Shown: in pieces, positions 8,297 through 63,691 of the stretch | Numbering within the stretch: position 1 is the stretch's first letter | Layout: every line of letters starts with the position of its first letter | IMG/VR virus record: IMGVR_UViG_3300045988_117710 | Origin: a virus | Reading direction: 5' to 3' (one strand) | Length of the DNA: 64,000 nt | Made by a program: the position numbers and the translations under genes | The notes under the pieces: generated by a model | Told to the model about the DNA's origin: nothing | Database searches by the model: none | The model's input: only the letters and a program-made list of their open reading frames with translations

Positions 8297-8305
8297 TCGT
8301 ATAAT
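8291..8305 (+). promoter_or_regulatory. promoter P1, TTTTTCGTATAAT type
   Basis: TCTTTTTCGTATAAT sits on the terminator U-tract. -10 at 8300-8305. Confidence 0.5.
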
Positions 8306-12018: not shown

Positions 12019-12078
12019 TTATACTGGAAAGTATACTCTTTTTACTTTCTAAATTATATATTAATTTAGGAGGTTGTT

Positions 12079-14580: not shown

Positions 14581-14612
14581 AAGAACACTCTATGAGTGTT
14601 CTTTTTATTTTG
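14581..14612 (+). terminator. intrinsic terminator after the putative capsid gene
   Basis: 10-bp perfect stem AAGAACACTC/GAGTGTTCTT plus TTTTTATTTT. Confidence 0.8.
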
Positions 14613-21167: not shown

Positions 21168-21200
21168 AAGTCAACAATATTGTTGACTTTTTCTTTTGTT
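21168..21200 (+). terminator. intrinsic terminator overlapping a downstream -35
   Basis: 9-bp stem AAGTCAACA/TGTTGACTT plus a T-tract. Confidence 0.7.
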
Positions 21201-21211
21201 TATCGTATAAT
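21183..21211 (+). promoter_or_regulatory. consensus sigma-A-type promoter TTGACT-N17-TATAAT for the PARP-like gene
   Basis: -35 at 21183-21188 lies in the 3' arm of the terminator hairpin. -10 at 21206-21211, preceded by CG. Confidence 0.65.
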
Positions 21212-22496: not shown

Positions 22497-22598
22497 TGAA
22501 GAGAGATAAAGCTCTTTAAGTTTGATTAATTTATATATTATTTTAGGTGGTTTTAATTCTTTTTCCCACCTGACTTTCTTTTTCTTATTTTTTCCATT

Positions 22599-22624
22599 GG
22601 GTGGGGTTATCCCACTCTTTTTCG
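22599..22624 (+). terminator. intrinsic terminator
   Basis: GTGGG/CCCAC stem plus TCTTTTT. An additional AGGTGG/CCACCT hairpin lies at 22545-22571. Confidence 0.5.
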
Positions 22625-22630
22625 TATAAT
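22614..22630 (+). promoter_or_regulatory. promoter, CTCTTTTTCGTATAAT
   Basis: -10 at 22625-22630. Confidence 0.5.
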
Positions 22631-22647
22631 ATAGTAGGAGTGATTTT

Positions 22648-22929
22648 ATGATTTGTTCTAATTGTAAGAAGGACACAGCTCTGATGAATAAGGATTTATG
22701 TTTCGATTGTTTTCTTGCAAGTCAGGGAGAGTTTTCTAATAAGTTGTTTTGTCCTAGTTGTTTGAAAGAGACTACTTGTGTATTTGAGTATTCTGTTCAA
22801 GGGTTTCAGCATCGTAAGATTCATGAAGTATCTGGTGTGGTATATAAGGATTTTGATATCTTTGAAGATTACTATACTTGTCTTGAGTGTGACAAGCAGT
22901 TCACAGTTGTTAGGGAAGAAGAGAGATAG
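22648..22929 (+). CDS. zinc-ribbon protein
   Basis: Four CxxC pairs. RBS GTAGGAGTGA. Confidence 0.55.
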   Translation: MICSNCKKDTALMNKDLCFDCFLASQGEFSNKLFCPSCLKETTCVFEYSVQGFQHRKIHEVSGVVYKDFDIFEDYYTCLECDKQFTVVREEER

Positions 22930-27504: not shown

Positions 27505-27587
27505 TTCATTTATCATATATTATTTTAGTGTATGAGTTCTTGGAGGTCTGCTATGATGACATCTCTATTAATTCAATTTATTATTTA

Positions 27588-27623
27588 GGCAAGGATTTTA
27601 GGGAAATCTTTGCCTTTTCTTTT
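27588..27623 (+). terminator. intrinsic terminator
   Basis: 10-bp stem GGCAAGGATT/AATCTTTGCC (one G-U pair) plus TTTTCTTTT. Confidence 0.7.
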
Positions 27624-27658
27624 GGTTTATGGTAGTTCTACAGTTTTAGGAGTGCTTT

Positions 27659-28606
27659 ATGGAACAAGAGATATTAAAAGAGTTAGGTGGTAAGTTGAAA
27701 TATCTTATTCGTAAGAAGAAATCATTTCAAGATATTTGTGAAGCTACTGGTCTTAAAGATTATGAGCTTTATGGTGTTGTTCAATTGCTTAAGCAACAAG
27801 GTGAACTTATTGATGTTGTTAATGGTGAGCTAGTTATTCTTAAAACTCCACCTAAGACTTCAGACATTTATACAGTCCCTACTATTTCTGAACATCTTAA
27901 GTTGTTGTTAATTAGTGATACTCATCTATGTAATAAATCTGATAGACTTGATATTCTTCGTTATCTATATGATAAGGCAGAGAAACAAGGTGTTAAGCAT
28001 GTTCTTCATTCTGGAGATTTTACTGATGGTTTATCTAATCGTCCTGAACAGATTTATGAACTTAAAGAACCATCTTATGAAGGTCAAGTTCAATATTGTG
28101 TAGATAAATATCCTAGGTTTAGTGGTAAGACTTATGTTATTCAAGGTAATCATGATGATTGGTGGTTTAAGAGATGTGGTTCAGAGATTGTTAAGGCAAT
28201 TGCTCAACAGAGAGATGATATTGTTTATCTAGGAGCTGATGTTGCTGATCTTCATATTGGTAAGCTTAAGTGTAGATTATTTCATGGTTCTGGCGGCTCT
28301 TCTTATGCAGTGTCTTATAAGATTCAGAAGTATTTAGATTCTATTCCTTTAGAAGAACGTCCTGATATTCTTCAAACAGGACATATTCATCGTGCTTTCT
28401 ATATGCATAATGTATCTACTCATTGTTTTCAAACAGCTTCTTTAGAAGATCCAACTCCATATAGTCGTTCTATGGGATTCCCTAATGATTTATCTTGTTG
28501 GTGGGTTGATGTTGATTTTGATAACAAGGGTAATCCTGTTATGATTCAACCTCAATTAGAAACTTTCCCTACTAAGAGATTAGTTAAATCTCGTTATAAG
28601 GGATAA
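27659..28606 (+). CDS. calcineurin-like metallophosphoesterase (SbcD/Mre11-like?) with an N-terminal wHTH-like region
   Basis: Motifs LISDTHL, HSGDFTDG and QGNHD. Confidence 0.55.
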   Translation: MEQEILKELGGKLKYLIRKKKSFQDICEATGLKDYELYGVVQLLKQQGELIDVVNGELVILKTPPKTSDIYTVPTISEHLKLLLISDTHLCNKSDRLDILRYLYDKAEKQGVKHVLHSGDFTDGLSNRPEQIYELKEPSYEGQVQYCVDKYPRFSGKTYVIQGNHDDWWFKRCGSEIVKAIAQQRDDIVYLGADVADLHIGKLKCRLFHGSGGSSYAVSYKIQKYLDSIPLEERPDILQTGHIHRAFYMHNVSTHCFQTASLEDPTPYSRSMGFPNDLSCWWVDVDFDNKGNPVMIQPQLETFPTKRLVKSRYKG

Positions 28607-28612
28607 TTATTG

Positions 28613-28641
28613 TTGACTTCTTAATTCTTTTATCGTATAAT
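28613..28641 (+). promoter_or_regulatory. consensus promoter TTGACT-N17-TATAAT
   Basis: -35 at 28613-28618, -10 at 28636-28641. Confidence 0.6.
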
Positions 28642-45448: not shown

Positions 45449-45458
45449 GGTGGTTTTT

Positions 45459-46634
45459 ATGAAAGAGTTTGTTATTAAGAATGAACTTATGATGTTCATT
45501 GAGGAGCATGAGGATTGGAAGGTTCTATTAGCTTCTGATCCTTATAATCTAATTATTAAGGAAGATGAGGATTTTCCTAATGTTTATTTATTCAAGTATA
45601 ATATGTTAGAGTCTGATATGTATCAGAAGATTTCCCAAGAAGCGAGAGGTTTAATAGTTGAGGTTTCTGAAGTAGCTGGTAGACGTGTGACTAAGATGTT
45701 AGCACATTCTTTTGATAAGTTCTTTAACTATACTGAACCTCAAGGTGTTATGGTTCTAGAGAATTTCAATTGGGATAATTATAGTTTCCAAGAGAAGAGA
45801 GATGGATCTCTTATGAGATTGTGGTTCTATAAAGATAAGTGGGTTGTATCTAGTTCTGGTACTATTGATGCTCATAAAGCCAATATTCAGATTCCTAGTG
45901 TAGGTTATAATTCATTTGGTGATATGTTTGATGCTATTATTAAGAAGTATGATGTTGATTTTGATTCTTTAGATAAGGGGATAACTTATTCATTTGAGAT
46001 GACTTCACCAGACAATAAGATAGTAGTTGATTATGACTCTGATGAGCTTACTCTTATTGGTATGAGAGTTAACAAGTTGAATATGGAGCTTGATCCTATA
46101 TCTTTTAATCCATTTAAGGATATTAAGGTTGCTGAGAGATTTGAGTTTACTTCTCTTGATGATGCTTTATCTATTATTAATAATAGAACGAATTTTGAGG
46201 GCTTGGTTTTGGTTGATTCTAGTTTCAATCGTGTTAAGATTAAGACTGAGGAGTATTTAGCTTTAGCAAAGATGTCTGACATGGCAAGTTCTGATAGAGG
46301 TATCTTAAGGATGATTCTAGCTGGTACTATAGATGATGTTGCAAATCGATTACCACATTTACAACCACGAATTGATATCGTTAAGGGTTTTGTGGAATCA
46401 GAAATTACTAATATTAAGCAGTTGATTAGTACTGTTGATTTTACTCAAGATAGAAAGACAATTGCTCTATCAGTTAAGGATAGTCCTTATGCTAGGTTTG
46501 TATTTCCATTGATTTCTAATCCTGATCAGGATGTTATTGGAGCTTATTTTGTGTCTGATAACTTGGAGAAGATTTACAAATCTTATAAGGAAAGGTTCAA
46601 TTTAAGTGAAGAAACTGAAGAAGAAGTCATATAA
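45459..46634 (+). CDS. RNA ligase, T4 Rnl1 (RnlA)-like
   Basis: Nucleotidyltransferase motif I KRDGSL (T4 Rnl1 has KEDGSL). GAGGTGG RBS. Confidence 0.6.
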   Translation: MKEFVIKNELMMFIEEHEDWKVLLASDPYNLIIKEDEDFPNVYLFKYNMLESDMYQKISQEARGLIVEVSEVAGRRVTKMLAHSFDKFFNYTEPQGVMVLENFNWDNYSFQEKRDGSLMRLWFYKDKWVVSSSGTIDAHKANIQIPSVGYNSFGDMFDAIIKKYDVDFDSLDKGITYSFEMTSPDNKIVVDYDSDELTLIGMRVNKLNMELDPISFNPFKDIKVAERFEFTSLDDALSIINNRTNFEGLVLVDSSFNRVKIKTEEYLALAKMSDMASSDRGILRMILAGTIDDVANRLPHLQPRIDIVKGFVESEITNIKQLISTVDFTQDRKTIALSVKDSPYARFVFPLISNPDQDVIGAYFVSDNLEKIYKSYKERFNLSEETEEEVI

Positions 46635-46651
46635 TAGTTGACTTCTTTTTT
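46623..46651 (+). terminator. intrinsic terminator overlapping a downstream -35
   Basis: GAAGTCA/TGACTTC stem plus TTTTTT. Confidence 0.6.
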
Positions 46652-46666
46652 GTTTTATCGTATAAT
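46638..46666 (+). promoter_or_regulatory. consensus promoter TTGACT-N17-TATAAT
   Basis: -35 lies in the terminator 3' arm. The 24 nt from the -10 onward are identical to 21206-21229. Confidence 0.65.
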
Positions 46667-46691
46667 AGAGACAATGAAAGAGGTGAATGTT

Positions 46692-47408
46692 ATGAAAGAC
46701 ATGCTTATGAATGAGTATAGTGTTTCAAAACTATTTGTTAAGAATAGTCCAACAAGTAGAATTAACAGCAGAGCGGATTTTGGTTATAAGGAAGAACATG
46801 TATGGGACATTGAGAAGTACCTATCTGATGAAGAGAAGTTAGAAATTATTGATTACCATACTGATGGGTTAGGTTCTTATATTCTAGATCTTATTAGAAA
46901 CTATCAAGTTGTAAGAGAGAATCCAGAGGTTCTTAAGAGAACAACTTATGGAGGGTTTAATAAGAATTCATTATTGAAGTGGTTGAATACAGCTGATCCT
47001 AGAAATGTATGTTCTAGAATTCTAACTCGTAGTTATCCTACTTATTGGATGTTCAAGAAGGAGTTTAGATTAACTGAGGATTGTCCTACAACTGACTATG
47101 GTTATAGGTTCTTATATACAGACCAACCTGTTGTTAGACAATGGTTTCATGATTTACTTAATAAGTTAAATAAGGAAGAGACTGAATGGTTTTTATTAAA
47201 TGATGAACATGAGGTTAAGATAAATAAGGTTAAGGATTTAGCTGATATTGTAGGGACTGACAATTTAAATAATCGTAAGTTATCTGACCTAGTTTGGAAT
47301 AATAAACGTGATGGTTTTACTGATGAAGAGTTGGATCGTTACATAGAAGTTTTAAGTGATATTGTTAATTATATGAATGAGAAGAAAGCTCAACTTGAGT
47401 TAATATAG
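46692..47408 (+). CDS. hypothetical protein
   Basis: Consensus promoter at 46638-46666 and a 5'-UTR identical to that of the PARP-like gene. ATG at 46692; the track ORF is extended through the promoter. Confidence 0.55.
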   Translation: MKDMLMNEYSVSKLFVKNSPTSRINSRADFGYKEEHVWDIEKYLSDEEKLEIIDYHTDGLGSYILDLIRNYQVVRENPEVLKRTTYGGFNKNSLLKWLNTADPRNVCSRILTRSYPTYWMFKKEFRLTEDCPTTDYGYRFLYTDQPVVRQWFHDLLNKLNKEETEWFLLNDEHEVKINKVKDLADIVGTDNLNNRKLSDLVWNNKRDGFTDEELDRYIEVLSDIVNYMNEKKAQLELI

Positions 47409-47420
47409 GAGGTAATGTAT

Positions 47421-47678
47421 ATGTCAAAAGTAAGTTTTATGTTAGGAAGTAATTTAGTATTTCAAATATCAAAGAGTAATTATATGTCTGCTAATCAGAT
47501 TGTGGATTTCTTAATGGAGCAAGGTTGTTTCACTCTTAAGAAAGACAATGTTATGAAGTCACTTGATAATATGTTATATTATGGTCGTGAGATTACAGCT
47601 GGTGAGTATGATTGTTTAACTGGTAAGGTTACATTAACAATCTCTGATGAGGTTTGGGAGGATCCATATGGATGTTAG
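47421..47678 (+). CDS. hypothetical protein
   Basis: AGGAGG RBS. Confidence 0.5.
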   Translation: MSKVSFMLGSNLVFQISKSNYMSANQIVDFLMEQGCFTLKKDNVMKSLDNMLYYGREITAGEYDCLTGKVTLTISDEVWEDPYGC

Positions 47679-47877
47679 AAGTTATACGAAGGATTTATTA
47701 AGGGAGCTTGGTGCTAAGGGATATATGATTGTCCCTTGCACACAAGAAGAGCAAGAGGAGATATTTACAACTTTGAGGTCTAATGGTAGATGTGCAAGAG
47801 CTGGTTATATCTATAATAAGGAACATGAGAAGATATTCTTTGTTCTAACAAAGAAGAGAAATAAGGTTGGTGCTTAG
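47668..47877 (+). CDS. hypothetical protein
   Basis: GGGAGGA RBS, ATG at 47668. Confidence 0.45.
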   Translation: MDVRSYTKDLLRELGAKGYMIVPCTQEEQEEIFTTLRSNGRCARAGYIYNKEHEKIFFVLTKKRNKVGA

Positions 47878-47878
47878 T

Positions 47879-48370
47879 ATGATTAAGATTAAGTATGGTG
47901 ATTTGTTAGATGCAACGGAAGATGTAATCTGTCATCAATGTAATGTTCAAGGTATCTTTGGTGGAGGTTTAGCTGCTCAGATTGGTAAGAGATGGCCACA
48001 ATGTGCTTTCTCTACTGAAGGGTTCGCTGAAGTATTTGGTTCTGGTGTTCTAGGTATGGTTCATTATTGGAAGACTCCTGATGGTAGAACTGTTTGTAAT
48101 TGTTTTACTCAGAGGGAGGATTTCACTACTGATTATTGTTTTCTAGAGAAAGCTTTTACAGAGATTCTTACAATTTGTAAGGAGAGTAATCTTTCAGTAG
48201 CAGTACCATTTCAGTATGGTTGTGGTATAGCTCATGGTGATTGGAATCAGGTATTAGATATCTTTACTAGGTTATCTACTGATATTGGTGTTGATATTAA
48301 TGTTTATTATTTGAAGGGAAGTGTTCAAGATGCCTCTAATAGTGAAGGACAAATATTTGGAGAAGAATAG
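47879..48370 (+). CDS. macro-domain (ADP-ribose binding / hydrolase) protein
   Basis: YGDLLDATEDVICHQCNVQGIFGGGLAAQI matches the macro-domain core (GDIT..DAIVNAAN..GGGV). Confidence 0.6.
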   Translation: MIKIKYGDLLDATEDVICHQCNVQGIFGGGLAAQIGKRWPQCAFSTEGFAEVFGSGVLGMVHYWKTPDGRTVCNCFTQREDFTTDYCFLEKAFTEILTICKESNLSVAVPFQYGCGIAHGDWNQVLDIFTRLSTDIGVDINVYYLKGSVQDASNSEGQIFGEE

Positions 48371-48575
48371 TTGGGTTATAGGTGATTTACTAACTGCTAG
48401 AGAAATGATTGATGTTATTGTTAGAGATTTAGAATCTAATGGTAGAACTCATGTAGATTATGTTCTAGAGAAGTTAGAAAGAGCAGAGAATATTTTAAAT
48501 AATATTAATGGGTTATGTTTAAGAAATTCTAATAAAGGAGTGAAGAAAGATGAAGACACAAGTTCAAGTAATTAG
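48330..48575 (+). CDS. hypothetical protein
   Basis: GAAGGGA RBS then ATG at 48330. Confidence 0.4.
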   Translation: MPLIVKDKYLEKNSWVIGDLLTAREMIDVIVRDLESNGRTHVDYVLEKLERAENILNNINGLCLRNSNKGVKKDEDTSSSN

Positions 48576-48978
48576 GACCTATGATAGAAGTGTTTTTGAA
48601 AAACAACTATCTGAAGCTTATGCAAGTAAGGATGTAGTTAATGTTAATACTCATACCGAGTCTTATTTCAATGGAAGGGATTTAGTTATCTATTATATAG
48701 CAATTGTGTTCTATAAGGAGAATGTTGGTGAGATTGCTTTAGTGAATAGGTCTAAGTCAGATATTCTAGTTAGTAATTTAGGATTAAATTCTAGAGCTTA
48801 TGGTGTGTTGGTTAGACATAATAGACATATGACTCTTGGTGATCTTGTTGATTTAATAAGATCTGGTAGTATTTATAAGATGAAGAATATTGGTGGTACT
48901 ACTGTAACTCAAATTAAGGAGAGATTAGTTGAGTTAGGTTTAGTTAAGGAGGAGAGTTCAAATGGCAAAGATAGATGA
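48550..48978 (+). CDS. protein with an RNA polymerase alpha-subunit C-terminal-domain-like (HhH) fold
   Basis: LGLNSRAYGVL..GDLVDLIRSGSIYKMKNIGGTTVTQIKERLVELGL is collinear with the E. coli alpha-CTD ([45 protein letters not shown]). Confidence 0.5.
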   Translation: MKTQVQVIRTYDRSVFEKQLSEAYASKDVVNVNTHTESYFNGRDLVIYYIAIVFYKENVGEIALVNRSKSDILVSNLGLNSRAYGVLVRHNRHMTLGDLVDLIRSGSIYKMKNIGGTTVTQIKERLVELGLVKEESSNGKDR

Positions 48979-49135
48979 GCTTAGAGAGATAGCGAAAGCA
49001 TATTGTAAGAAGATGGGTTATAAGTTTATATTCGCTAATGAATATAAGTTTGGTTTCGAGGATAAGCAAGGTGGTTTATGGACTTTAACTTATTTTGAAT
49101 TAGAATCTAAGTTGAAGGAAATGAATAATCAATAA
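48962..49135 (+). CDS. small hypothetical protein (57 aa), not in the ORF track
   Basis: AGGAGAG RBS, clean ATG..TAA. Overlaps the end of the previous gene. Confidence 0.4.
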   Translation: MAKIDELREIAKAYCKKMGYKFIFANEYKFGFEDKQGGLWTLTYFELESKLKEMNNQ

Positions 49136-49145
49136 TATTGGGTAG

Positions 49146-49158
49146 GTTATTCGTATAT
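49146..49158 (+). promoter_or_regulatory. promoter variant, TTATTCGTATATTA
   Basis: -10 TATATT at 49153-49158, immediately followed by a hairpin. Confidence 0.4.
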
Positions 49159-49159
49159 T

Positions 49160-49243
49160 ACAATGACAATTCTTTAGTTGTCATTTGTATGTCACGAGTA
49201 ACCCCATACTCAGTGAATAGCACTCTATACGAGTGCTTTTTTC
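49160..49243 (+). promoter_or_regulatory. structured 5' leader with a possible attenuator upstream of 49267
   Basis: Hairpin AATGACAA/TTGTCATT at 49162-49185, then the terminator hairpin at 49219-49243, both lying between the promoter and the RBS. Confidence 0.35.
49219..49243 (+). terminator. terminator or attenuator hairpin inside the leader of the phosphoesterase-ligase gene
   Basis: AGCACTC/GAGTGCT stem plus TTTTTT, 25 nt before the ATG at 49267. Confidence 0.6.
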
Positions 49244-49266
49244 GTATTTAAATTAAGGAGGTACCT

Positions 49267-50934
49267 ATGGTTAATGTTTTCTTTATTAGTGATTTACATC
49301 TTAATCATGGCAATATTATTGATTATTGTGATCGTCAGTTTAATAGTATTCAGGAGATGAATGATACTATTGTTAGGAATTGGAATAGTGTTGTAGGTCC
49401 AGATGATATAGTTTATTTTCTAGGTGATTTTGCTTTAGGTAGAGATGTAGATAAGGTTTATGAGGAGTATTCGAAGCTTCTGAATGGCACTATCTATTTC
49501 TTAAGAGGAAATCATGATAAGTCTAGATCTGTTGTATCTAGGTATTTTAATTTAATCGATACAGGTACGACTGTTTCTTATAATGATTCTCATTTCATTC
49601 TTTCCCATCATCCTTTATATGATTCAGAGATTCCTAAGGGATATGTTAATCTTCATGGTCATATTCACAATAACAAGTTGAGTAGGGTTTATGATTCTGG
49701 ATGTCATTTTAATGTTTCTGCTGATGTTACTGATTTCACACCATATTTCGTAAAGAATATTATAGATGATATTTCCTCTGGTTCTTTAGTTCCAAAGAGA
49801 ACTGGGGTTGATAGAGTTAGGAAGGATGATGGTAGTATGAGAAAGTTAGCTACAGTGCAAACTATTTTAAATGTTGAACCTATACCTGATGCTGATGCAA
49901 TTGAGGTTGTTACAGTTAAGGGTTGGAAGGTTGTTGTAAAGAAGGGTGAGTATCAAGTTGGTGATAAGGTAGTTTATTTCGAAATTGATTCACTTATTCC
50001 AAGAAGTTCAATAACAGAGTTTTTGATGGAAGATGAGTATATGTTGTCTGCTAGATTAAGAACTAGAAAATTAAGAGGTCAAGTATCTCAAGGTTTAGTT
50101 ATTTCTTTAGAAGATTCTCTTGTTATGGCTGAAGAGTTAAATGGTGCTGTTGAGTTATTTGATACTGATGATGGTACAGATGTTTCTGATTTACTTCATG
50201 TTGAGAAGTATGAACCACCTGTTACTTATGGTAACGAGGGTAGATGTGTTGCTTGGCCATTTACATTGACTAAAACTGATGAAGAGAGAATTCAAAATAT
50301 TCCTGAAGTTATTGATAAGTTGATCGAGAATGGAACTCATTTATGTATTTCAGTTAAGTTAGATGGTACTTCTATGACTGTAGTACATCAACCAGATGGT
50401 ATTCATGTAGCTGGTAGAAACAATGATTTTGATAAGACAGATGATTTTGCTTTCAATAATAAGTATTGGTCTACAGCTCGAAGATATGGTGTTACAGATG
50501 CTTTAGAAGAAGCCCATATAAATAATCCAGACAAATACTTTGCTGTTCAAGGTGAGTTAGTTGGTCCTGGTATTCAAGGTAATAAGATGAATTTATCAGA
50601 TTTGAATTATTATATCTTTAACTTATTTGTTTCTGAAGATGAATGCAGAACTTGGAAGAAGTTAGGTTATGAAGAATTAGTTCAGTTCTGTATTGATTAT
50701 GATCTTACTCATGTTCCTTATATTTATTCAGATTTCGAATTGAAGGCACATGGTTTAGTAGATGTTGATAGTATTCTTAAGTTTGCGGAAGGTACTTATA
50801 GAGATAATGCCGAGGGTTATTTCCCAAATGCTAAAGCCAATCAACAAAGAGAGGGGTTAGTGTTTAGAACTCTTGATCATCAATTCTCTTTTAAGGTTGT
50901 TAATAATATCTTCTTACTTAAGGGAGGAGAATAA
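49267..50934 (+). CDS. metallophosphoesterase fused to a nucleotidyltransferase-family (RNA/DNA) ligase domain
   Basis: N-terminal DLHLNHG, GDF and GNHD. C-terminal motif I KLDGTS. AAGGAGG RBS. Confidence 0.6.
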   Translation: MVNVFFISDLHLNHGNIIDYCDRQFNSIQEMNDTIVRNWNSVVGPDDIVYFLGDFALGRDVDKVYEEYSKLLNGTIYFLRGNHDKSRSVVSRYFNLIDTGTTVSYNDSHFILSHHPLYDSEIPKGYVNLHGHIHNNKLSRVYDSGCHFNVSADVTDFTPYFVKNIIDDISSGSLVPKRTGVDRVRKDDGSMRKLATVQTILNVEPIPDADAIEVVTVKGWKVVVKKGEYQVGDKVVYFEIDSLIPRSSITEFLMEDEYMLSARLRTRKLRGQVSQGLVISLEDSLVMAEELNGAVELFDTDDGTDVSDLLHVEKYEPPVTYGNEGRCVAWPFTLTKTDEERIQNIPEVIDKLIENGTHLCISVKLDGTSMTVVHQPDGIHVAGRNNDFDKTDDFAFNNKYWSTARRYGVTDALEEAHINNPDKYFAVQGELVGPGIQGNKMNLSDLNYYIFNLFVSEDECRTWKKLGYEELVQFCIDYDLTHVPYIYSDFELKAHGLVDVDSILKFAEGTYRDNAEGYFPNAKANQQREGLVFRTLDHQFSFKVVNNIFLLKGGE

Positions 50935-50935
50935 T

Positions 50936-51730
50936 ATGAAGTATTTATTTCACTTCGCTATGATGAAGGAGTGTCCTACTGAGTTTATTAAGTTACCAGA
51001 AGGTGTACATGATGATTTAAGTGGAGATGATATTGTAGGTTTATTTGATACCATTTATCCTAATATTAAGTTTTGGGTTTCTGGTGTTGGATGCAATAAT
51101 GTCCTTTATCCTGATTATGAAGTGGTTAATTATCTTAAGACTTGTGATTATGTTTATAGTTTTGGTTTATCTGGTTCTATTAATGATAATCTTAAAGTTG
51201 GAGATTTGGTTAATGTTCATAGTGTTAATAATCTAGATGTTAAGATGCCTGGGTATGGATTAGGTTGTACTGATGATTTTGATGCAGATTGTTTAGGTTG
51301 TTCAAAGTCTAATCTTACAGCTTTATCTGATTTTAATACTAGGGTTATCTGTTATACTTCTAATCGATTTGTTACGAAGGAGTATTTAGATTTCTTATTT
51401 GGTGATAATTCTGATGATAATTTAGATGATTTCTATGATGATGCTTTTAATGTAGCATTTGATGAGAATGTGATTACTTCTTTAGCTTTAGGTTTTATTG
51501 ATGAACCAAAGAAAGATTGTATAGTTTGTGAGATGGAACTATTCTATCTTAAGAAGTTTGTTGATATTATTAATAAGTCTTGTCCTGTATGTGCTTATAA
51601 GTTAGTTTCTGATATAGTATGTAAACCTGATAATTATGAAGAGTATGAAGGTTCTTTACAAACTCTATTATCTAGTTTACATTTTGCTGTAGGAGCTGCT
51701 GTTAAGGAGTTAGGTTCAGATGGAGAATAG
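50936..51730 (+). CDS. PNP/MTAN-family nucleosidase or phosphorylase-like protein
   Basis: VSGVGCNNV and FGLSGSIN..LKVGDLV resemble the SGIGKVNAA and GTAGGL..VGDVV motifs of MTA/SAH nucleosidases. GGGAGGAG RBS then ATG; the track ORF is extended upstream. Confidence 0.4.
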   Translation: MKYLFHFAMMKECPTEFIKLPEGVHDDLSGDDIVGLFDTIYPNIKFWVSGVGCNNVLYPDYEVVNYLKTCDYVYSFGLSGSINDNLKVGDLVNVHSVNNLDVKMPGYGLGCTDDFDADCLGCSKSNLTALSDFNTRVICYTSNRFVTKEYLDFLFGDNSDDNLDDFYDDAFNVAFDENVITSLALGFIDEPKKDCIVCEMELFYLKKFVDIINKSCPVCAYKLVSDIVCKPDNYEEYEGSLQTLLSSLHFAVGAAVKELGSDGE

Positions 51731-52220
51731 TATGAAGGTTCAGTTAGCAGATATTACTTTTGATTCATGTGTAGATGGTCCTGGGTTAAGAACTGTTGTG
51801 TGGTTGTCTGGGTGTTCTCATAGATGTCCAGAGTGTCATAATGAACGTTTACAGGATTTCCATTATGGTTATTCCATGGATGTTAATGAGTTAGTTGATA
51901 CTTTATCTAGTTCGAAGAGGATAACTTTCTCTGGTGGTGATCCATTGTTTCAAGTGAATGCTTTAGATGAGATTATTGGTTCTCTTGATCCAGAGACAGA
52001 CATTTGGATTTATACTGGTTTTACTTTAGATAAAGCCAAGGAGATTCTGATGGATAAGCCAAATCTTAGAGAGTCTGAATTTACTATTAAGTGTGGTAAG
52101 TTTGATAAGAGTCTTAAGGATCCTAGTTGTAAGTTTAGGGGTTCTAGTAATCAAAGGATTTATCATTATATTAATGGTATCTTTACTGATATCTCTGACA
52201 AGATTGATAATAGAAAATAA
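51720..52220 (+). CDS. nrdG: anaerobic ribonucleotide reductase activating protein (NrdG-type radical SAM activase)
   Basis: VDGPGLRTVVWLSGCSHRCPECHN, FSGGDPL and DPSCKFRGSSNQRIYHY are collinear with E. coli NrdG. Confidence 0.7.
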   Translation: MENSMKVQLADITFDSCVDGPGLRTVVWLSGCSHRCPECHNERLQDFHYGYSMDVNELVDTLSSSKRITFSGGDPLFQVNALDEIIGSLDPETDIWIYTGFTLDKAKEILMDKPNLRESEFTIKCGKFDKSLKDPSCKFRGSSNQRIYHYINGIFTDISDKIDNRK

Positions 52221-52221
52221 G

Positions 52222-52247
52222 GGAAAGTTTAGTTGACTTTCCTTTTT
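52222..52247 (+). terminator. intrinsic terminator after nrdG
   Basis: GGAAAGT/ACTTTCC stem plus TTTTT. The loop and 3' arm contain TTGACT. Confidence 0.6.
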
Positions 52248-52261
52248 ATTTATCGTATTAT
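52233..52261 (+). promoter_or_regulatory. promoter TTGACT-N17-TATTAT(AAT)
   Basis: -35 lies in the terminator loop/3' arm. Confidence 0.6.
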
Positions 52262-52279
52262 AATATAGAGGTGAATGGT

Positions 52280-52528
52280 ATGTATTCTCATAATTATAAA
52301 GGTTTACCTTATAAGCAAAGTGTTAAGCGATTTGAGAAGGATTATCGTATTAGATATTGTTTGTATGGTAAGTATTCCAAATGGAGAACTGCTTCTGGGA
52401 AGAAGATTCGAGTTAAGGATTTAGATTATCACCATTTAATTAATATTGTTAATTATTTTGGGAATACAAAGATTCGAAATGATTATCCATTTGTTTGGTA
52501 TAGATATGTGAAAGAGGTGGTATTGTGA
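52280..52528 (+). CDS. small hypothetical protein
   Basis: Consensus promoter at 52233-52261. AGAGGTGAA RBS then ATG at 52280. Confidence 0.5.
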   Translation: MYSHNYKGLPYKQSVKRFEKDYRIRYCLYGKYSKWRTASGKKIRVKDLDYHHLINIVNYFGNTKIRNDYPFVWYRYVKEVVL

Positions 52529-53565
52529 AGAAGTTCACAGCAACAGTTTTAATGGGTTATCCTGGTTCTGGTAAGACTAGAGCAAGTTCTTATAAGCATT
52601 TAAGAACTAATGATGCTTTATATCTATCTTCTGATGATTTAAGAGTAGAGATGTTTGGTTTCAGAGATCAGGAGCATAATAAGGAGTTATTCGAAGAGTT
52701 ATATAAGAGAGCAATCAATTATTCTGATAAGGGAGATGTTTTAATTGATTCTACAGCTCTTACTAGAAAAGATAGATTGAGGGTTATTGCAAAGCTTGGT
52801 AAGTACTTCAATATGAGATTAGTAGTAGTTGTCAGACCTATTTGGGAGATTGTGGAGGAGAATCAAATCAGAAAGGTTTCTAAACCTGAAGAGTATATTC
52901 CTGAACCAATCTTTAAACAGATTCTTGGTAGATTTCAATTACCTACTTATGATGAGGGTTGGGATGAGATTAGTTTTTGTTTCAATTCTTCTATTGAAGA
53001 ACATAATGATCCTAATCTATTATTAAAATGTTTTTATGATTTAGATAAGGTTGAAGATATTGCACATGATAATCCACATCATCCAGAGTCAATCAAGGAA
53101 CATGTTAATTATGTTTTAGGTAAGGTTAAGGAAGAGACATCAAGTTTTGTATTAGAGTCTATTGCTTATTATCATGATTTAGGTAAATTTTATGTTATTC
53201 AGTATAATGAAGAGAAAGGATATTCTCAATGTATTGGTCATGCAGCTGTTTCAGCTTATATCTATTTGACAGATTTCTTGATTAGGGCTGTTTTAGATTC
53301 TATTGAGAAAGATGACTTTACTAATCCTTTTAGTAATTTAGAGTTTCTTTTAATTTATTATGGAGTGTTCTATCATGATTATCCTTATTCATTTACTGAT
53401 TTTGAAGATATGGTTAGTTCTTTAAGTAAACCTAGTAAACCATTGATTCATTTATTTAAAAATCTTAATGATGGTTTAGTTGGTATTTCTATGAGAGAGT
53501 TTACAAGAATGTTAATAGATTTTAATTGTTATGATAGAATGAGGGAAGGTGATTCAGATGAATGA
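52525..53565 (+). CDS. bifunctional P-loop polynucleotide-kinase-like domain plus HD phosphohydrolase domain
   Basis: Walker A VLMGYPGSGKT. C-terminal H..HD motif (HHPESIKEH ... YYHDLGK). Confidence 0.55.
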   Translation: MKKFTATVLMGYPGSGKTRASSYKHLRTNDALYLSSDDLRVEMFGFRDQEHNKELFEELYKRAINYSDKGDVLIDSTALTRKDRLRVIAKLGKYFNMRLVVVVRPIWEIVEENQIRKVSKPEEYIPEPIFKQILGRFQLPTYDEGWDEISFCFNSSIEEHNDPNLLLKCFYDLDKVEDIAHDNPHHPESIKEHVNYVLGKVKEETSSFVLESIAYYHDLGKFYVIQYNEEKGYSQCIGHAAVSAYIYLTDFLIRAVLDSIEKDDFTNPFSNLEFLLIYYGVFYHDYPYSFTDFEDMVSSLSKPSKPLIHLFKNLNDGLVGISMREFTRMLIDFNCYDRMREGDSDE

Positions 53566-61131: not shown

Positions 61132-61140
61132 TCGTATATT
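61131..61140 (+). promoter_or_regulatory. promoter variant, ATCGTATATTA
   Basis: Same variant as at 49150, again immediately followed by a strong hairpin. Confidence 0.35.
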
Positions 61141-61234
61141 AATAGTGAGGAGTGATCCTCACTATTTTACTAGTGGTGACACAGTTTATTGTATGTTTAG
61201 TAAGTTCACAGTGATGTGAAAGAGGAGTGATTTT

Positions 61235-63250: not shown

Positions 63251-63264
63251 ATACTTCGTATATA
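63251..63264 (+). promoter_or_regulatory. promoter, ATACTTCGTATAAT, driving an ORF-free transcript
   Basis: -10 at 63259-63264. Confidence 0.45.
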
Positions 63265-63270
63265 ATATTA

Positions 63271-63685
63271 GTAGCATATGTTAGTTCCTTTTTAGTCTTA
63301 CTGGTCAAGAACTTACTAACCGCTACAAACATTACCTCTTAATGTAGAAGCTACTGCAAAAGAATGTTCCTTGTAGCAAATGTTAGCTGGGTTTACCCGG
63401 CGTATCAGTCCTTCGGGACAAGAATTACTGAAGTCCTATTATTCAATGAGGGAAGTCTAATAGGTTGGAGCTATTGAGAGTTCTGTAATCTTTGGGTTAC
63501 ATTCCGCAAGACCTTATTCTACTAATTCTGTTTTTGATTCAGCAAATGAGTGTTCCTTTTATGGAAAATGAAATGGGTTCAATGTCATTACACTCCGCTG
63601 AAGTTTATTTTGAACTTCCTATTGGAAGATGCTTACAACTACATTACGAAGTATTGTTAAGGCACACTTAGGTGTGTCTTTTTCG
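63271..63685 (+). ncRNA. candidate structured non-coding RNA (~415 nt)
   Basis: Bounded by the promoter at 63259-63264 and the terminator at 63662-63685. No ORF of 60 aa or more. GC content is locally higher than the surroundings, with several hairpins such as GTCC-TTCG-GGAC. Confidence 0.35.
63662..63685 (+). terminator. terminator ending the candidate ncRNA
   Basis: GCACAC/GTGTGTC stem plus TTTTT. Confidence 0.5.
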
Positions 63686-63691
63686 TATAAT
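63676..63691 (+). promoter_or_regulatory. promoter, CTTTTTCGTATAAT
   Basis: -10 at 63686-63691. Confidence 0.45.

Follow-up and report, generated by a model that had tools for sequence, protein, structure and literature searches.

The question raised by positions 49146-49266 of the viral record IMGVR_UViG_3300045988_117710 (a stretch of 64,000 nucleotides (nt), hereafter the window) is what a promoter-like motif and an intrinsic terminator are doing together, directly ahead of a gene for a phosphoesterase-RNA ligase. The original prediction took them for an attenuator or riboswitch-like leader of that gene, and named a separate small RNA (sRNA) of ~85 nt as the alternative. The alternative fits better, with a predicted length here of ~77 nt. 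Sequence comparison, at about even chances, favours the reading that the region is a conserved RNA module yielding a discrete ~77-nt sRNA, with a constitutive terminator that would also close the upstream operon. On checking the sequence, all the parts named in the original prediction were present, at coordinates within 0 or 1-3 nt of where they had been placed (Table 1).

The conservation of the module was traced through the ligase gene. Close DNA relatives were not found among GenBank phages by megablast, and tblastn gave only ligase homologues of <=36% identity. Scans of IMG/VR and of JGI metagenomes with the ligase protein gave only relatives of <=39% identity, which were of no use for the intergenic region. 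A large protein collection provided graded full-length homologues, from 84% to 56% identity, and the DNA around twelve ligase homologues was compared with the window. Gut metagenomes yielded six sequence variants with the module directly before the orthologous gene (window/L050/L051, L132/133, L134, L143, L141/142, and L144), among which the ligase is 74-84% identical in amino acids (aa); the window and L050/L051 are identical in the module. Six other lineages that were sampled lack it at this place, L135 (71% ligase identity), L136 (64%), L137 (77%), L139 (65%), L313, and L315 (63%). In L135, L136, and L139/140 the gene overlaps the preceding one or adjoins it directly, in L315 it follows an unrelated gap of 49 nt, and in L313 the contig begins only 60 nt upstream of the gene, with unrelated sequence. 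The gap in L137/138 is 38 nt long, and only TTTTTTCGTAATTAT is left there before the Shine-Dalgarno (SD) sequence of the ligase gene. At L137 1231-1268, TTATCTTTTTTCGTAATTATTAAAGAGAGGAG alone separates the stop codon of the upstream gene from the start of the ligase gene. The module of the window is itself flanked by direct TTCGTAT repeats (49150 and 49241), and the state of L137 could be either a deletion between such repeats or the ancestral one. Matches to the core motif of the module were also collected from IMG/VR (53 loci) and GTDB genomes (115 loci), and on inspection all of them were unrelated coding sequence.

Within the module, conservation is mosaic. Between the window and L134, whose ligase genes share 78% nt identity, 11/11 bases are identical in the promoter motif, 13/25 in hairpin 1 with the pairing kept, 29/31 in GTATG plus hairpin 2, 10/21 in hairpin 3 (the terminator), 10/10 in the T-run plus CGTAT, and 7/19 in the SD region. 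Both differences in hairpin 2 belong to one compensatory change from a G-C to an A-U pair. The sequences of hairpins 1 and 3 differ among three clades and the distal half of hairpin 1 is replaced, while complementarity is fully kept. Folded separately, the six variants all adopt one three-hairpin shape (z-scores of -4.7 to -6.9), and none of 200 shuffled sequences was as stable; for the 83-nt segment of the window the z-score is -5.6, again with 0/200. Alignment by MAFFT/RNAalifold recovers hairpin 2 only and misregisters hairpins 1 and 3, which are not homologous base for base, and the pairs were tabulated for each sequence from its individual fold. The set of features is clearly non-random, and the mosaic is as expected of a structured RNA that would carry one sequence-specific site.

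That site would lie in the middle of the module. The stretch between hairpin 1 and the terminator, which had been described as a spacer of 30 nt, is 33 nt long and itself folds, as a third hairpin at 49192-49216 with the loop ACCCCA (hairpin 2 in order of position). The sequence GTATGTCAC...CCCATAC is invariant across all six variants. L141/L144 have a deletion of 7 nt in the core, and their middle hairpin is formed by GUAUG/CAUAC around the loop UCACCC. The C-rich motif is unpaired in every minimum free energy and centroid fold, as ACCCCA in the long form and UCACCC in the short one. The loop keeps its CCCC although the + strands of these genomes contain only 10-12% C. The + strand of the 64-kb window contains four copies of the word, four-fold fewer than expected from composition, and the copy in the module is often the sole CCCC in the 3-8-kb loci of the relatives. 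Its retention in the loop is notable because it is nearly absent elsewhere in these genomes. The words of the core are unique in the window, and no paralogue of the core was found there.

Hairpin 1, which had been predicted with 8 base pairs (bp), was confirmed as AATGACAA/TTGTCATT at 49162-49169 / 49178-49185. Counted from the predicted transcription start (+1), 6-7 bp of it remain as a 5'-terminal hairpin, and in all six variants a hairpin begins at the predicted +1. The base of the stem, ACAA/UUGU, is invariant in the six, and the distal pairs are UG UA / CG AU UG / UA GC AU. Hairpins at the 5' end are known to stabilise RNAs in Firmicutes.

The promoter-like motif at 49151, TCGTATATT, is one mismatch away from TCGTATAAT, a recurrent motif of this genome. 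Exact copies of TCGTATAAT number 14-15 on the + strand of the window and 0 on the - strand. Nearly all are intergenic, mostly 15-27 nt ahead of start codons and often directly 3' of a hairpin and T-run. Several have TTGACT 17 nt upstream, which makes a full sigma-A-type promoter. Across the six variants TTCGTATAWT is invariant and in L141/L144 it is exactly TCGTATAAT; the invariance extends as TTCGTATAWT-N6-ACAA, where ACAA are the first four bases from the predicted +1. The motif begins 15 nt past the upstream stop codon in the window and only 2 nt past it in L134. Promoter activity of TCGTATATT, the start site, and termination are inferred from such motifs. A second intergenic motif, (T/C)ATATATTA(A/T)TTTAG, was also seen in the window, with approximate starts at 12054, 12985, 22538, 23740, 27513, 32702, 40515, and 57370. 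It is distinct from TCGTATAAT and lies mainly before structural-looking genes, e.g., in the capsid region, which suggests two promoter classes, perhaps late as against early or middle. The 49151 motif (TCG + TATATT) reads as a hybrid of the two. A second TCGTATATTA was found at 61132-61170, right after a stop codon and followed by a hairpin (ATAGTGAGGA/TCCTCACTAT) and TTT, in the geometry seen at 49151. A transcript that started at the 61132 motif would escape that terminator, because its 5' arm would be missing.

The terminator at 49219 has a stem of 7 bp with 4 GC pairs, a loop of 5 nt, and a stability of -9.5 kcal/mol, and it was also called by an independent scan. The run of six U that had been claimed is present as a T-run, with 5 T after the stem and 6 only if T49237 is counted. 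Terminator-like matches were found at 5 per 10 kb against 2.6 +/- 1.7 expected, so that single ones are not rare. In the relatives the stem is either AGAGCAC/GTGCTCT (AGAGCACT/AGTGCTCT) or AGAGGATA/TATCCTCT. Three different stem sequences thus occur, all of them complementary and with a T-rich run behind them. Helix positions 3, 4, and 6 show double changes across the clades. L144 has an internal U.G pair, which fits a helix in + strand RNA. The likeness to the terminator after the capsid gene (14581-14603, AAGAACACTCTATGAGTGTTCTT) that had been pointed out is real in the window, where CACTC-TAT..GAGTG is shared. The stem is wholly different in the relatives, and since its sequence has been replaced there, no functional meaning is given to the likeness. 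The 49219 terminator is the first plausible one on the + strand after the promoter cassette at 46638, and for this reason is taken to close the upstream operon as well.

The original prediction had overlooked a degenerate second promoter-like motif, TCGTATTTA, which is fused to the T-run and is possibly a weak restart promoter for the ligase gene. Its layout matches that of the terminator-TTTTTCGTATAAT cassettes at 8297, 22622, 29078, 60327, 61637, and 63683, in which a hairpin, a T-run, and TCGTAT precede an SD. Its -10-like hexamer, TATTTA or TATGTA, lacks the final T. The U-run plus CGTAT (TTTTTCGTAT) is conserved at 10/10 positions in L134. Four of the six variants carry this second TCGTAT motif behind the terminator, and L141/L144 lack it. 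In all four variants with a clean run of U5-6 (window, L132, L134, L143) TCGTAT follows, and after the interrupted U-runs of L141 and L144 (AUUAUUUU, AUUUAUUUU) the SD follows directly. The pattern fits a leaky terminator in L141/L144 versus a strong terminator with a weak restart promoter in the others; with two clades per side, it is suggestive only.

Under the reading as a discrete sRNA, transcription would start at about A49166 from the -35-less motif TCGTATATT. The RNA would fold as it is made into the 5'-terminal hairpin, the middle hairpin displaying the invariant C-rich loop ACCCCA, and the terminator, and its 3' end would lie in the U-run, at about 49240-49242. It could also be freed as a 3' fragment of the upstream operon transcript. 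The terminator would be constitutive, with no competing RNA switch, and the ligase operon would be reached by polymerase reading through it. In the clade of the window, the degenerate TCGTATTTA at the U-run is possibly a second source of ligase transcription. The function probably resides in the exposed C-rich loop, and by analogy with Firmicutes sRNAs that have C-rich loops it would pair with G-rich, SD-like sequences of target mRNAs. A trans-acting function of the ~77-nt RNA is inferred from this analogy. The unit is non-coding, and both its promoter-like motif and its terminator are conserved. Two further loci, 22497-22647 and 63256-63691, repeat this format, with a promoter-like motif, then non-coding sequence, a terminator, and TCGTATAAT, and this phage group appears to use it for non-coding RNAs. 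A functional tie of the RNA to the neighbouring RNA-repair genes is distinctly improbable. Such a tie could be a checkpoint in which a phage or host factor overrides the terminator once host anticodon nucleases have damaged tRNA, with the repair enzymes then produced on demand, or hairpin 2 could be a decoy or partner for the nuclease or a repair enzyme, in loose comparison with the Y-RNA-like RNAs of bacterial Rsr-RtcB operons.

Several observations weigh against a discrete, trans-acting RNA. No convincing target for the C-rich loop was found among the 69 translation-initiation regions of the window, and the top duplex of the loop, at -18.9 kcal/mol, falls within the ligase open reading frame (ORF) and not at a real start. 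In all variants hairpin 1 has 2-6 predicted pairs that lie before the predicted +1, which a primary transcript does not explain. It is possible that the start site is nearer to the -10 element than usual, that the whole of hairpin 1 has a role in transcripts that enter from upstream, e.g., as a processing site, or that the repeat acts in DNA as well. Wherever the module was found it accompanies the ligase gene, also next to a different upstream gene, and this fits a cis role too. The six variants fall into about three clades, and statistics of covariation are thin. The 49151 motif of the window departs from the consensus (TATATT) and has no -35 element. A position weight matrix from the exact TCGTATAAT sites ranks it only 49th and the second TCGTAT motif (49242) 33rd; the matrix is over-fitted to exact sites, both local motifs are low in it, and it cannot tell which of them is active. 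Copies of TCGTATAAT with one mismatch are common by chance (38 seen against 22 expected), and for this and for the low rank the promoter call at 49151 rests mainly on the comparative evidence.

The claim of an attenuator or riboswitch holds in part. The order of promoter-like motif, structured RNA, terminator, ribosome-binding site, and ligase gene is real and conserved, and the proposed switch fails the tests made of it. A leader of the classical form would respond to a metabolite, a tRNA, or the translation of a leader peptide by exchanging a terminator for an antiterminator. The position of the terminator between promoter-like motif and ribosome-binding site speaks for such a device, as does a leader that is conserved and always found on the same gene. 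Folding with the 3' arm of the terminator removed or blocked revealed no antiterminator pairing in any of the six variants. With that arm withheld, hairpins 1 and 2 were unchanged and the 5' arm was unpaired or made 3-5 non-conserved pairs, so neither arm has an alternative helix. No conserved downstream partner of the core, as an anti-SD or a pseudoknot, was found; the best partner is weak and differs in each variant (-8.5 to -13.9 kcal/mol). The strongest value comes from L144, the only variant whose C-rich loop has a possible partner in the terminator's 3' arm, a 7-bp CACCCC:GGGGUG option. With the three hairpins formed, hardly any unpaired bases are left to make up an aptamer. Rfam gave no match in the whole window at gathering thresholds, and at 49100-49300 only noise at E <= 10 (tsr26 with 17 bits against 141 needed, mir-722, and others), with no riboswitch, leader, or T-box; no tRNA or tmRNA was found within the window. 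The one candidate for a leader peptide, a 20-codon ORF from 49189, has no SD, is frame-shifted by the 7-nt indel in L141/L144, and was rejected. Because there is no antiterminator, no conserved partner, and no Rfam match, because this ORF is broken, and because six lineages do without the module, a switch intrinsic to the RNA is not supported, and a classical cis attenuator or riboswitch is very improbable. That the terminator attenuates downstream transcription in the plain sense only is partly supported by the sequences: in L141/L144 the interval from terminator to SD contains no promoter-like sequence, and the ligase gene would therefore be reachable there only by read-through.

The most serious rival is antitermination that depends on a factor, as at lambda PR'-tR' with Q. 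Most transcripts from a constitutive promoter would stop at the nearby terminator and give a short by-product RNA, and a phage or host protein recognising hairpin 1, hairpin 2, or the promoter region would grant timed read-through into the RNA-repair operon. Promoter, short structured RNA, terminator, and genes form the layout of lambdoid late control, where the short RNA (6S RNA/StxS) can be a functional sRNA (PMC7547250). The lack of another visible promoter for the ligase gene in L141/L144 agrees with this model, the invariant sequence of hairpin 2 could be a protein-binding site, and the upstream gene changes between relatives without separating the module from the ligase gene. On the other side, no protein was identified as the antiterminator, and the neighbouring small proteins have no informative Pfam matches. 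The six lineages that carry the same ligase gene without the module, the possible restart promoter past the terminator in the window clade, and the interrupted U-runs of L141/L144, which suggest simple leakiness, also tell against it, and the model is considered rather unlikely. A second rival is pure punctuation. The terminator would just end the upstream operon (46638-49135), the ligase operon would restart at TCGTATTTA, and TCGTATATT with hairpins 1 and 2 would be incidental 3' untranslated region (3'-UTR), e.g., mRNA stabilisers. In favour are the terminator-TTTTTCGTATAAT cassettes, by which this genome is punctuated as a rule, the position of the 49219 terminator as the first credible one downstream of the cassette at 46638, and L137, where TTTTTTCGTAATTAT stands immediately ahead of the ligase SD and the remainder of the module is missing. 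Such a view leaves unexplained why the 31-nt hairpin-2 core with its CCCC loop and TTCGTATAWT-N6-ACAA are nearly invariant while the flanking stems and the SD region diverge, and its restart motif is degenerate where present and missing in L141/L144. It is judged unlikely. An element acting in DNA, with the inverted repeat over the predicted start as an operator or other protein-binding palindrome and the RNA folds irrelevant, would account for hairpin 1 overlapping the predicted +1 and extending upstream of it in all variants, and the TCGTATATTA at 61132 is likewise directly followed by an inverted repeat. Between clades, though, it is the pairing that is conserved and not the palindrome sequence, the G.U pairs of the stems work only in + strand RNA, and hairpin 2 and the terminator are left unaccounted for, which makes this explanation extremely improbable.

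The favoured ~77-nt sRNA resembles several known systems in part. The C-rich motif of RsaE/RoxS-type sRNAs pairs with G-rich Shine-Dalgarno regions (PMC6158497, PMC5419742). Like these and the Rsa group of S. aureus (UCCC), the RNA would have a length in the range of ~80-100 nt, few stable hairpins, an intrinsic terminator, and a C-rich motif in an apical loop. The setting is also of the low-GC Firmicute type, here with strong AGGAGG SDs and TTGACT-17-TATAAT promoters. Unlike them it is encoded by a phage, has one C-rich motif, and shows no similarity in sequence or to covariance models (RsaE was absent with cmscan at E <= 10). It is not a member of RsaE/RoxS, and the relation is one of functional analogy only. 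The lambda 6S RNA and StxS are short transcripts of the late promoter PR' that stop at tR', and the terminated RNA is a stable functional sRNA (PMC7547250). As there, an intrinsic terminator lies within ~80-200 nt of a promoter, here a putative one, and before phage genes that would be reached by read-through. Unlike there, no Q-like antiterminator or qut site was identified, the phage is of the T4-capsid type and looks virulent rather than being a lambdoid prophage, the genes downstream are an RNA-repair cluster and not a late operon, and some variants have a possible restart promoter. From the terminator-promoter cassettes of its own genome the locus differs in the extra promoter-like motif and two conserved hairpins that precede the terminator, and in the degenerate motif downstream. 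The candidate would also share the terminator of the upstream operon, and in this it is like sRNAs of the DapZ/MicL type. These are enterobacterial, Hfq-dependent sRNAs derived from 3'-UTRs, with an internal promoter and the terminator of the mRNA. Unlike them, the candidate RNA is also the 5' leader of the next gene.

To our knowledge, the small RNAs of virulent phages of Gram-positive gut bacteria are almost unexplored. The module offers a compact, well-delimited sRNA candidate, with an invariant C-rich loop, compensating stems, and no Rfam match, at the head of an RNA-repair cluster. If expressed, it would be a new family of phage sRNA, added to the known phage-encoded sRNAs and terminated leaders, and a simple test case for transcription punctuation in large, one-strand, C-poor phage genomes. 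Such genomes appear, from their sequence, to use terminator-promoter cassettes together with units of promoter, short RNA, and terminator, with at least two more such units in the window. The ~77-nt RNA would be a modest and still unproven addition to the known phage small RNAs, and if the locus is only punctuation, the finding is an ordinary one.

Table 1. Features of the module and of the surrounding RNA-repair-like cluster, in window coordinates.
Feature	Position	Strand	Description
TTATTCGTATATTA	49147-49160	+	contains core TCGTATATT
Promoter-like motif TCGTATATT	49151-49159	+	-10-like TATATT at 49154-49159
Predicted transcription start (A)	49166	+	7 nt after -10-like hexamer; canonical sigma-70/sigma-A spacing
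Hairpin 1	49162-49185	+	arms AATGACAA / TTGTCATT, loop TTCTTTAG
Conserved core	49187-49216	+	GTATG 49187-49191, then hairpin 2
Hairpin 2	49192-49216	+	TCAC-GAGTA 49192-49200, loop ACCCCA 49201-49206, TACTC-A-GTGA 49207-49216
Intrinsic terminator (hairpin 3)	49219-49242	+	AGCACTC-TATAC-GAGTGCT 49219-49237, T-run 49238-49242
Degenerate second promoter-like motif TCGTATTTA	49242-49250	+	fused to T-run
Shine-Dalgarno AAGGAGG	49255-49261	+	ahead of ligase ATG at 49267
Phosphoesterase-OB-RNA ligase gene	49267-50934	+	555 aa; first gene of unit ending at terminator 52219
Rnl1-like ligase	45450-46634	+	upstream of module
Fer4_12 radical-SAM-like protein	51720-52220	+	downstream of module
AAA_33/KTI12 kinase-like protein	52525-53565	+	downstream of module

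The window reads as part of a large virulent phage. An exact look-up of its proteins placed it on a 179-kb scaffold from a sample of the Human Microbiome Project. Its credible ORFs of >= 80 aa are all on the + strand, which consists of 36% T, 32% A, 20% G, and 12% C (32% G+C), an extreme strand asymmetry. A capsid gene of the T4 gp23 type is present, whose closest relatives in culture come from myophages of Listeria, Bacillus, and Streptococcus (~30-36% identity). The RNA-repair-like cluster extends over 45450-53565, and its gene order is conserved in all the relatives compared. The domains of the gene directly behind the module are Metallophos (calcineurin-like phosphoesterase, 5e-9), PHA02142 OB (1e-28), and RNA_ligase (2e-21). 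Two genes upstream of the module, at 48550-48978, is a protein of 142 aa with a weak match to PF03118 (RNA polymerase alpha C-terminal domain; E = 1.4e-4, below the Pfam cut-off), which might be a transcription-related phage factor.

Other loci of the window have related layouts. Compact terminator-promoter cassettes were found at 21180-21211, 46638-46666, 52219-52261, and 28610-28641, and also at 1840-1883 in L134 and 1-29 in L139. In these the 3' arm of the terminator gives the -35 hexamer TTGACT, and the T-run serves as the 17-nt spacer to TCGTATAAT. The unit at 22497-22647 consists of the promoter-like motif TTTATATATTATTTTAG, ~70 nt with hairpins, the terminator GGGTGGGGTTATCCCACTC with T5, TCGTATAAT (22622), and a gene at 22648. 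At 63256-63691, the promoter-like motif TCGTATATAAT is followed by ~420 nt that contain no credible ORF, have a higher C content, and form UUCG- and UUUA-capped helices. This unit has no Rfam match and a fold z-score of -2.84, and it ends at a hairpin (63660-63682) and T-run fused to TCGTATAAT (63683); it is a candidate long non-coding RNA. At 27505-27658, the promoter-like motif TCATATATTATTTTAG is followed by an SD, a mini-ORF of 11 codons (ATGATGACATCTCTATTAATTCAATTTATTATTTAG), a hairpin GGCAAGGATTT...AAATCTTTGCC with T-run, another SD, and a gene at 27659. With its leader peptide and terminator, the layout there looks more like a classical attenuator than that of the 49146 region.

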